This document shows, piece by piece, positions 35,537 through 35,574 of a DNA stretch of 64,000 nucleotides. The first letter of the stretch is position 1. Each line of letters starts with the position of its first letter. The notes below the pieces were generated by a model. It did not search any database. It saw nothing but the letters and a program-made list of their open reading frames with translations, and was not told where the DNA came from. The position numbers were made by a program, and so were the translations under genes. Source of the DNA: Escherichia coli (GTDB lineage Bacteria; Pseudomonadota; Gammaproteobacteria; Enterobacterales; Enterobacteriaceae); assembly GCF_003790525.1 (NCBI RefSeq), contig NZ_CP033635.1. One strand, given 5' to 3'.

Positions 35537-35574
35537 ACTGTATAAAAATCCTATACTGTACGTATCGACAGTTT
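35537..35574. promoter_or_regulatory. Tandem LexA (SOS) boxes of the ydjM promoter
   Basis: cactgtataaaaatcctata followed by tactgtacgtatcgacagtt (CTGT-N8-ACAG), ending about 14 bp before the ydjM ATG. Confidence 0.65.

Follow-up and report, generated by a model that had tools for sequence, protein, structure and literature searches.

The 38 bp at positions 35536-35573 of the window, by which we mean the whole 64,000-nucleotide stretch of Escherichia coli DNA analysed here, very probably form the SOS operator of ydjM, a reading to which we assign a probability of about 90%. Two 20-mers that resemble LexA-binding sites overlap there by 2 bp (TA), with an offset of 18 bp from start to start, and the second of them closes 14 nt before the ATG of the gene at 35588. 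An earlier, sequence-only reading had proposed overlapping boxes ending about 14 bp before the ydjM ATG, and this is what we find; both 20-mers are present exactly as it quoted them, while the span that it gave for them, 35537-35574, lies one base too far to the right. The basis for the operator is twofold: the motif, its excess over chance, its position, its identity with K-12 and its conservation are results of this analysis, and LexA binding and lexA-dependent induction come from the literature. The operator and the elements around it are the following, the two boxes being read from the window sequence and HI being the heterology index explained below.

35427..35458, plus strand: terminator-like hairpin, 2 nt beyond the hxpB stop codon and with 14 pairs in its stem, separating ydjM from the upstream gene
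35536..35555, strand not given: distal LexA box, CACTGTATAAAAATCCTATA, a half-operator with a consensus left arm and an A/T spacer
35554..35573, strand not given: proximal LexA box, TACTGTACGTATCGACAGTT, a full palindromic operator with perfect CTGT/ACAG arms, HI 10.22
35576..35580, plus strand: GTGAG, a putative Shine-Dalgarno-like element read from the sequence, 7 nt before the ATG
35588..36178, plus strand: ydjM coding sequence, 196 aa plus stop, in RefSeq ydjM, metal-dependent hydrolase

Locally, the genes follow one another as yniA, yniB, hxpB, ydjM and tcyP. When a 1-kb query was compared with complete E. coli genomes, it was 100% identical to SMS-3-5 (NC_010498.1) and 98-99% identical to the others. 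The closest counterpart of the site is that of K-12 ydjM (b1728), which shares the 38-bp operator, has its ATG at the same 14-nt distance and is likewise flanked by hxpB and tcyP, and differs in that the host strain here is SMS-3-5. Since every base of the operator is the same in K-12 MG1655, and since the literature reports tandem sites there, the earlier remark that tandem SOS boxes at ydjM were already established in K-12 is correct. The description of the product as a membrane protein resembling a hydrolase also holds: YdjM matches Pfam PF04307 (YdjM inner membrane protein) over residues 1-158 (E=7e-36; 123.8 bits against a gathering cut-off of 29), in addition to its annotation as a metal-dependent hydrolase. 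A longer open reading frame, offered by the ORF lister and starting at the GTG at 35576, was rejected as the ydjM start because the ATG is the start annotated in RefSeq and conservation of the GTG does not extend to other genera. As to the hairpin at 35427-35458, it corresponds to a gap in most genera other than Escherichia in an alignment of 81 sequences, and from this pattern it looks like an insertion in the Escherichia lineage.

In gammaproteobacteria the LexA operator follows the 20-bp consensus TACTG(TA)5CAGTA, with CTG-N10-CAG as its core. We scored sites by the Berg-von Hippel heterology index, which is the one employed in SOS studies, using a matrix of 18 E. coli LexA sites taken from a published table (PMC3009722) with ydjM excluded; on their own matrix these 18 training sites have HI values of 0.3-9.3. 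Scoring with a LexA matrix, which the sequence-only reading had named as a check on its proposal, gave 9.75 for the distal and 10.22 for the proximal box, both at the weak end of the range of functional sites, and placed them second and third among all positions on either strand of the 64-kb window. Only the box of cho (ydjQ) is ahead of them: CACTGGATAGATAACCAGCA at 48647-48666, with an HI of 5.7, stops 13 nt short of the annotated start of cho. This gene is the known SOS-regulated excinuclease gene, and its box served as an internal positive control of the matrix. It resembles the ydjM operator in being promoter-proximal, and differs from it in being single and in having the better score. 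Published indices for ydjM are 9.0 for E. coli (PMC11228462) and 9.12 and 12.85 for the two Salmonella boxes (PMC8072944), and one published table uses an HI cut-off of 14.

Could two such 20-mers have arisen by chance in A+T-rich intergenic DNA? Single sites of this quality are easily found, as dinucleotide shuffles of the window contain 0.27 of them per 64 kb, corresponding to about 20 per genome. An adjacent pair, however, appeared in none of 300 whole-window shuffles, and when the A+T-rich, 162-bp hxpB-ydjM intergenic region was shuffled locally, at least one site was seen in 9 of 5000 cases and two sites in 0 of 5000. The pattern CTGT-N8-ACAG, of which 0.6 occurrences would be expected, has the proximal box as its sole match in 64 kb. 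Either box alone is thus unremarkable genome-wide, and it is their standing side by side ahead of a gene that is more than chance. Because the site is also conserved in 80 species, and because lexA-dependent expression of the gene has been published (PMC11228462), we consider a chance origin to be effectively refuted.

Three further LexA-like 20-mers of the window deserve a mention in their own right. One is CACTGGATAGATTATTAGCA at 34008-34027, in the last codons of yniA, which is identical to the cho LexA box at 17 of 20 positions (HI 13.45) and has TAG in place of CAG as its right arm; it is probably a coincidence. The other two, each with one arm broken, lie at 12843-12862 on the minus strand, in the divergent ppsR-ppsA intergenic region (HI 10.85), and at 17249-17268 inside ydiV (HI 10.93); about 0.5 sites of this kind per window are expected by chance.

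While their scores are similar, the two boxes of ydjM are built very differently. The CTG-N10-CAG core is present in the proximal box and absent from the distal one. All of the cost of the proximal box falls in its G+C-rich spacer, which reads ACGTATCG where an A/T run is usual. The distal box, on the other hand, has CTA instead of CAG as its right arm, and the two positions mismatched there, A17 and G18, are invariant in 18 of 18 reference sites; these two mismatches make up 7.2 of its HI of 9.75. Its left 14 nt (left arm plus spacer) cost only 2.1 and are unique in the window, against an expectation of 0.025. The distal box is therefore only a left half-operator, so that the additive index overstates its own affinity for LexA, and autonomous binding of LexA to it is doubtful, given that both invariant right-arm positions are violated.

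Both boxes are strongly conserved. Within the species, no fewer than 5421 of the 5426 complete E. coli genomes contain the 86-bp promoter segment with an identity of 95% or higher. Compared with K-12 over 142 bp upstream of and into ydjM, the window has just two differences (at 35470 and at 35534), neither of them inside a box, and the two YdjM proteins are identical at 195 of 196 residues. For a wider comparison, a YdjM scan of species-representative genomes yielded 80 Enterobacteriaceae loci with 41 distinct 38-mers, from genera including Escherichia, Citrobacter, Salmonella, Enterobacter, Kosakonia, Leclercia and Raoultella, in which YdjM is 85-99% identical to the query. Among these loci the elements of the operator are retained as follows.

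Proximal CTG-N10-CAG: 80 of 80 loci
Distal CTGT: 77 of 80 loci
Distal CCTATA: 80 of 80 loci
Offset of 18 bp between the boxes: 79 of 80 loci

The sole exception to the offset is a Leclercia locus (L062) with a 1-nt insertion. Averaged over columns, identity reaches 0.95 in the distal box and 0.94 in the proximal one, compared with 0.68 for the third codon positions of ydjM and 0.74 for DNA farther upstream, and between the proximal box and the ATG both the sequence and the length (13-23 nt) differ among genera. This pattern also bears on the suggestion that the inverted repeat acts as an RNA hairpin in the 5' untranslated region, affecting translation or stability rather than binding a protein. 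The palindromic proximal box is only 14 nt from the start codon and may be transcribed, and the predicted fold of 35536-35600 reaches -14 kcal/mol; this is, however, no better than the folds of shuffled sequences (z = -1.6, with 14 of 200 shuffles folding as well), and a search of Rfam found no match at E<=1. Furthermore, the conserved positions are the CTG and CAG arms contacted by LexA, whereas the spacer varies regardless of pairing. An RNA element in place of an operator is, in our view, highly improbable.

The distal box is lost or disrupted in three lineages, all of which retain ydjM and the proximal box, from which it follows that this box is dispensable in some lineages. At two loci the distal CTGT has been replaced outright, by AGATGG in Citrobacter amalonaticus S646 (L013) and by AGCCTG in Intestinirhabdus alba (L025), at about 32-51 nt upstream of ydjM; TATACT (see below), the proximal box and an intact ydjM are all retained at both. 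The proximal box of L013 is far closer to the consensus (HI 5.5), a pattern which suggests that the two sites may compensate for each other. More generally, the way in which the distal CTGT is lost would fit an auxiliary role for the distal site.

A standard sigma-70 scan returned no promoter in the ydjM upstream region, a relaxed scan gave no candidate there above 7/12, and in a literature search we found no named ydjM promoter or transcription start. The elements that come into consideration are these.

35505..35535, plus strand: conserved upstream block of 31 bp, with GTTACA invariant in 81 of 81 sequences and no convincing -35
35529..35534, plus strand: TTCCGC, a weak candidate -35 proposed with low confidence, 2/6 to TTGACA, 17 bp upstream of TATACT
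35552..35557, plus strand: TATACT, a candidate -10 hexamer, 5/6 to TATAAT, invariant in 81 of 81 sequences and situated at the junction of the boxes

A competing promoter candidate is GTTACA-17-(C/T)ACTGT, which would place the -10 hexamer at 35536-35541. We infer that TATACT is the likelier of the two for three reasons: it is the better -10 hexamer at 5/6; it would explain why the right arm CCTATA of the distal box is frozen, as a change of TA to AG would destroy the hexamer; and L013 and L025, which are without the distal CTGT and hence without the -10 of the alternative promoter, keep ydjM.

The serious residual rival to our reading of the distal box is that the proximal palindrome alone is the LexA operator and that the distal "box" is core-promoter DNA (the spacer and/or the region near the -35, with an A-tract), which has a left end that happens to look like a LexA half-site and to which LexA does not bind productively. 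The last four bases of the distal box belong to the invariant TATACT, its CTA arm carries the heavy cost given above, DNA further upstream is equally conserved and, as we have seen, three lineages do without an intact distal box. In addition, RegPrecise gave only one ydjM site according to PMC4576408, where the distal 20-mer is printed as a K-12 ydjM site additional to that one. Against this stand the near-perfect left 14 nt of the distal box, which occur nowhere else in the window, and the fixed 18-bp offset from the full box in 79 of 80 species. The literature points the same way, as PMC4951493, with reference to Fernandez de Henestrosa et al. (2000), speaks of tandem LexA sites reported from experiment at E. 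coli ydjM, and colicin operators offer a precedent for overlapping LexA sites of which one is strong and the other weak. On balance, we judge a proximal-only operator to be unlikely, and continue to favour a two-box operator.

The upstream block raises a related point. Its mean column identity is 0.935 over 35513-35535, which makes it as conserved as the boxes, and since the whole 70-bp block is conserved, including these 31 bp upstream, conservation alone cannot be credited to LexA. On the available alignment, 35505-35535 may represent the -35/UP region of a weak, rigidly spaced promoter, or else the site of a second regulator. The latter might bind a conserved block that includes the distal box, besides LexA or instead of it, in which case ydjM would not be under SOS control alone. 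Such a regulator would account for a region that is conserved to the same degree as the boxes, with its invariant GTTACA, and that has no convincing -35. Nevertheless, we recognised no known motif within 35505-35535, a weak promoter with fixed spacing explains the conservation equally well, and the dependence of ydjM on lexA is already large, at 8.6-fold (PMC11228462). We therefore rate control by a second regulator as a still weaker contender than a proximal-only operator.

How, then, might the favoured two-box operator work? In an undamaged cell, LexA dimers would sit on the full palindrome of the proximal box, and occupancy of the distal half-operator would probably be aided by this neighbour through cooperativity. 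The pair would cover the likely -10 (TATACT), the spacer of the promoter and the probable start of transcription, and RNA polymerase would thereby be blocked; LexA on the proximal box would cover the -10 and the transcription start, and LexA on the distal box the spacer and the -10. This occlusion geometry is putative, because no sigma-70 candidate exceeds 7/12. Upon DNA damage, RecA-stimulated self-cleavage of LexA would free the operator, and the weak ydjM promoter would then fire, leading to YdjM in the inner membrane.

The published record agrees with SOS control of this kind. The gene is listed among the established members of the LexA regulon, as one encoding an inner-membrane protein, and a YdjM-family gene of S. 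aureus is likewise LexA-regulated. In K-12, RNA-seq showed a 2.5-fold induction of ydjM by AZT (PMC11228462, the same study that reports the lexA dependence mentioned above), and in a time-course study the transcript climbs to a log2 value of about 2.6. The ydjM of Salmonella enterica is damage-inducible as well, with an induction of 2.11-fold, and its two boxes lie 14 and 32 nt away from the start codon, hence with the same 18-bp offset; the fluorescence of a ydjM gfp fusion in Salmonella was undetectable (PMC8072944). The Salmonella loci of our own set, L031 and L047, have the same tandem layout as the window, and the difference lies in the proximal box, whose spacer is richer in A/T and whose HI is 7.4 against 10.2 here on the same matrix.

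Tandem LexA boxes are treated in the literature as strengthening repression (PMC4951493), and the sequence-only reading had spoken of "very tight" SOS repression of ydjM. This part of it is an inference that we could not support, as the two boxes are individually weak and the induction is moderate in all of the figures above (2.5-fold with AZT, 8.6-fold lexA dependence and about 2.1-fold in Salmonella). More plausibly, the tandem layout would compensate for two weak sites rather than confer exceptional tightness.

For comparison with other tandem operators, we scored the K-12 lexA and ColE1 cea promoters with the same HI matrix, with the following result.

lexA gene: two complete CTG-N10-CAG boxes without overlap, offset 21 bp, HI 4.9 and 7.8
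ColE1 cea: two boxes overlapping by 5 bp, offset 15 bp, HI 4.5 and 8.6
ydjM: a full box and a half-operator with a 2-bp overlap, offset 18 bp, HI 9.75 and 10.22

The lexA tandem resembles that of ydjM in having two adjacent LexA boxes just upstream of the regulated gene, but both of its boxes are complete, whereas the distal box of ydjM is without a right arm. Colicin operons, represented here by ColE1 cea, come closer in that two LexA boxes of unequal quality share their end bases immediately upstream of the gene, and their double SOS boxes have been described as binding two LexA dimers. In ColE1 the 5-bp overlap makes one box's CAG coincide with the CTG position of the following box, and the arm at the junction is weak in the downstream box, while in ydjM it is broken in the upstream one. 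The ydjM operator would function in the manner of these tandems without having the geometry of either, and its boxes are individually weaker than those of lexA or ColE1 cea. With offsets of 21 and 15 bp against 18 bp, neither the lexA-type nor the colicin-type class could be assigned to ydjM, and we rejected both. A more speculative idea is that ydjM stands for a third class of tandem LexA operators, defined by its geometry, in which the boxes start 18 bp apart, the distal one has ceded its right arm to TATACT and is occupied only through cooperativity between dimers, and the upstream block is perhaps a further control element. We put this forward tentatively, as a proposal that has the odds against it, albeit better ones than any of the rival explanations weighed above.

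As ydjM is a textbook member of the LexA regulon, with boxes recorded both in publications and in regulon databases, our analysis adds little to what was known of its control, and the two-box arrangement itself is already published; what may be undescribed is limited to the 18-bp phasing, the upstream block and the mechanism of obligate cooperativity. What has been added is a correction of coordinates and strain, a test against chance, the recognition that the distal box is a half-operator with its broken arm on the invariant TATACT, and a tandem geometry of 18 bp that is fixed across Enterobacteriaceae, unlike the lexA and colicin tandems. The operator is thus an ordinary, known regulatory site that is conserved across enteric bacteria.
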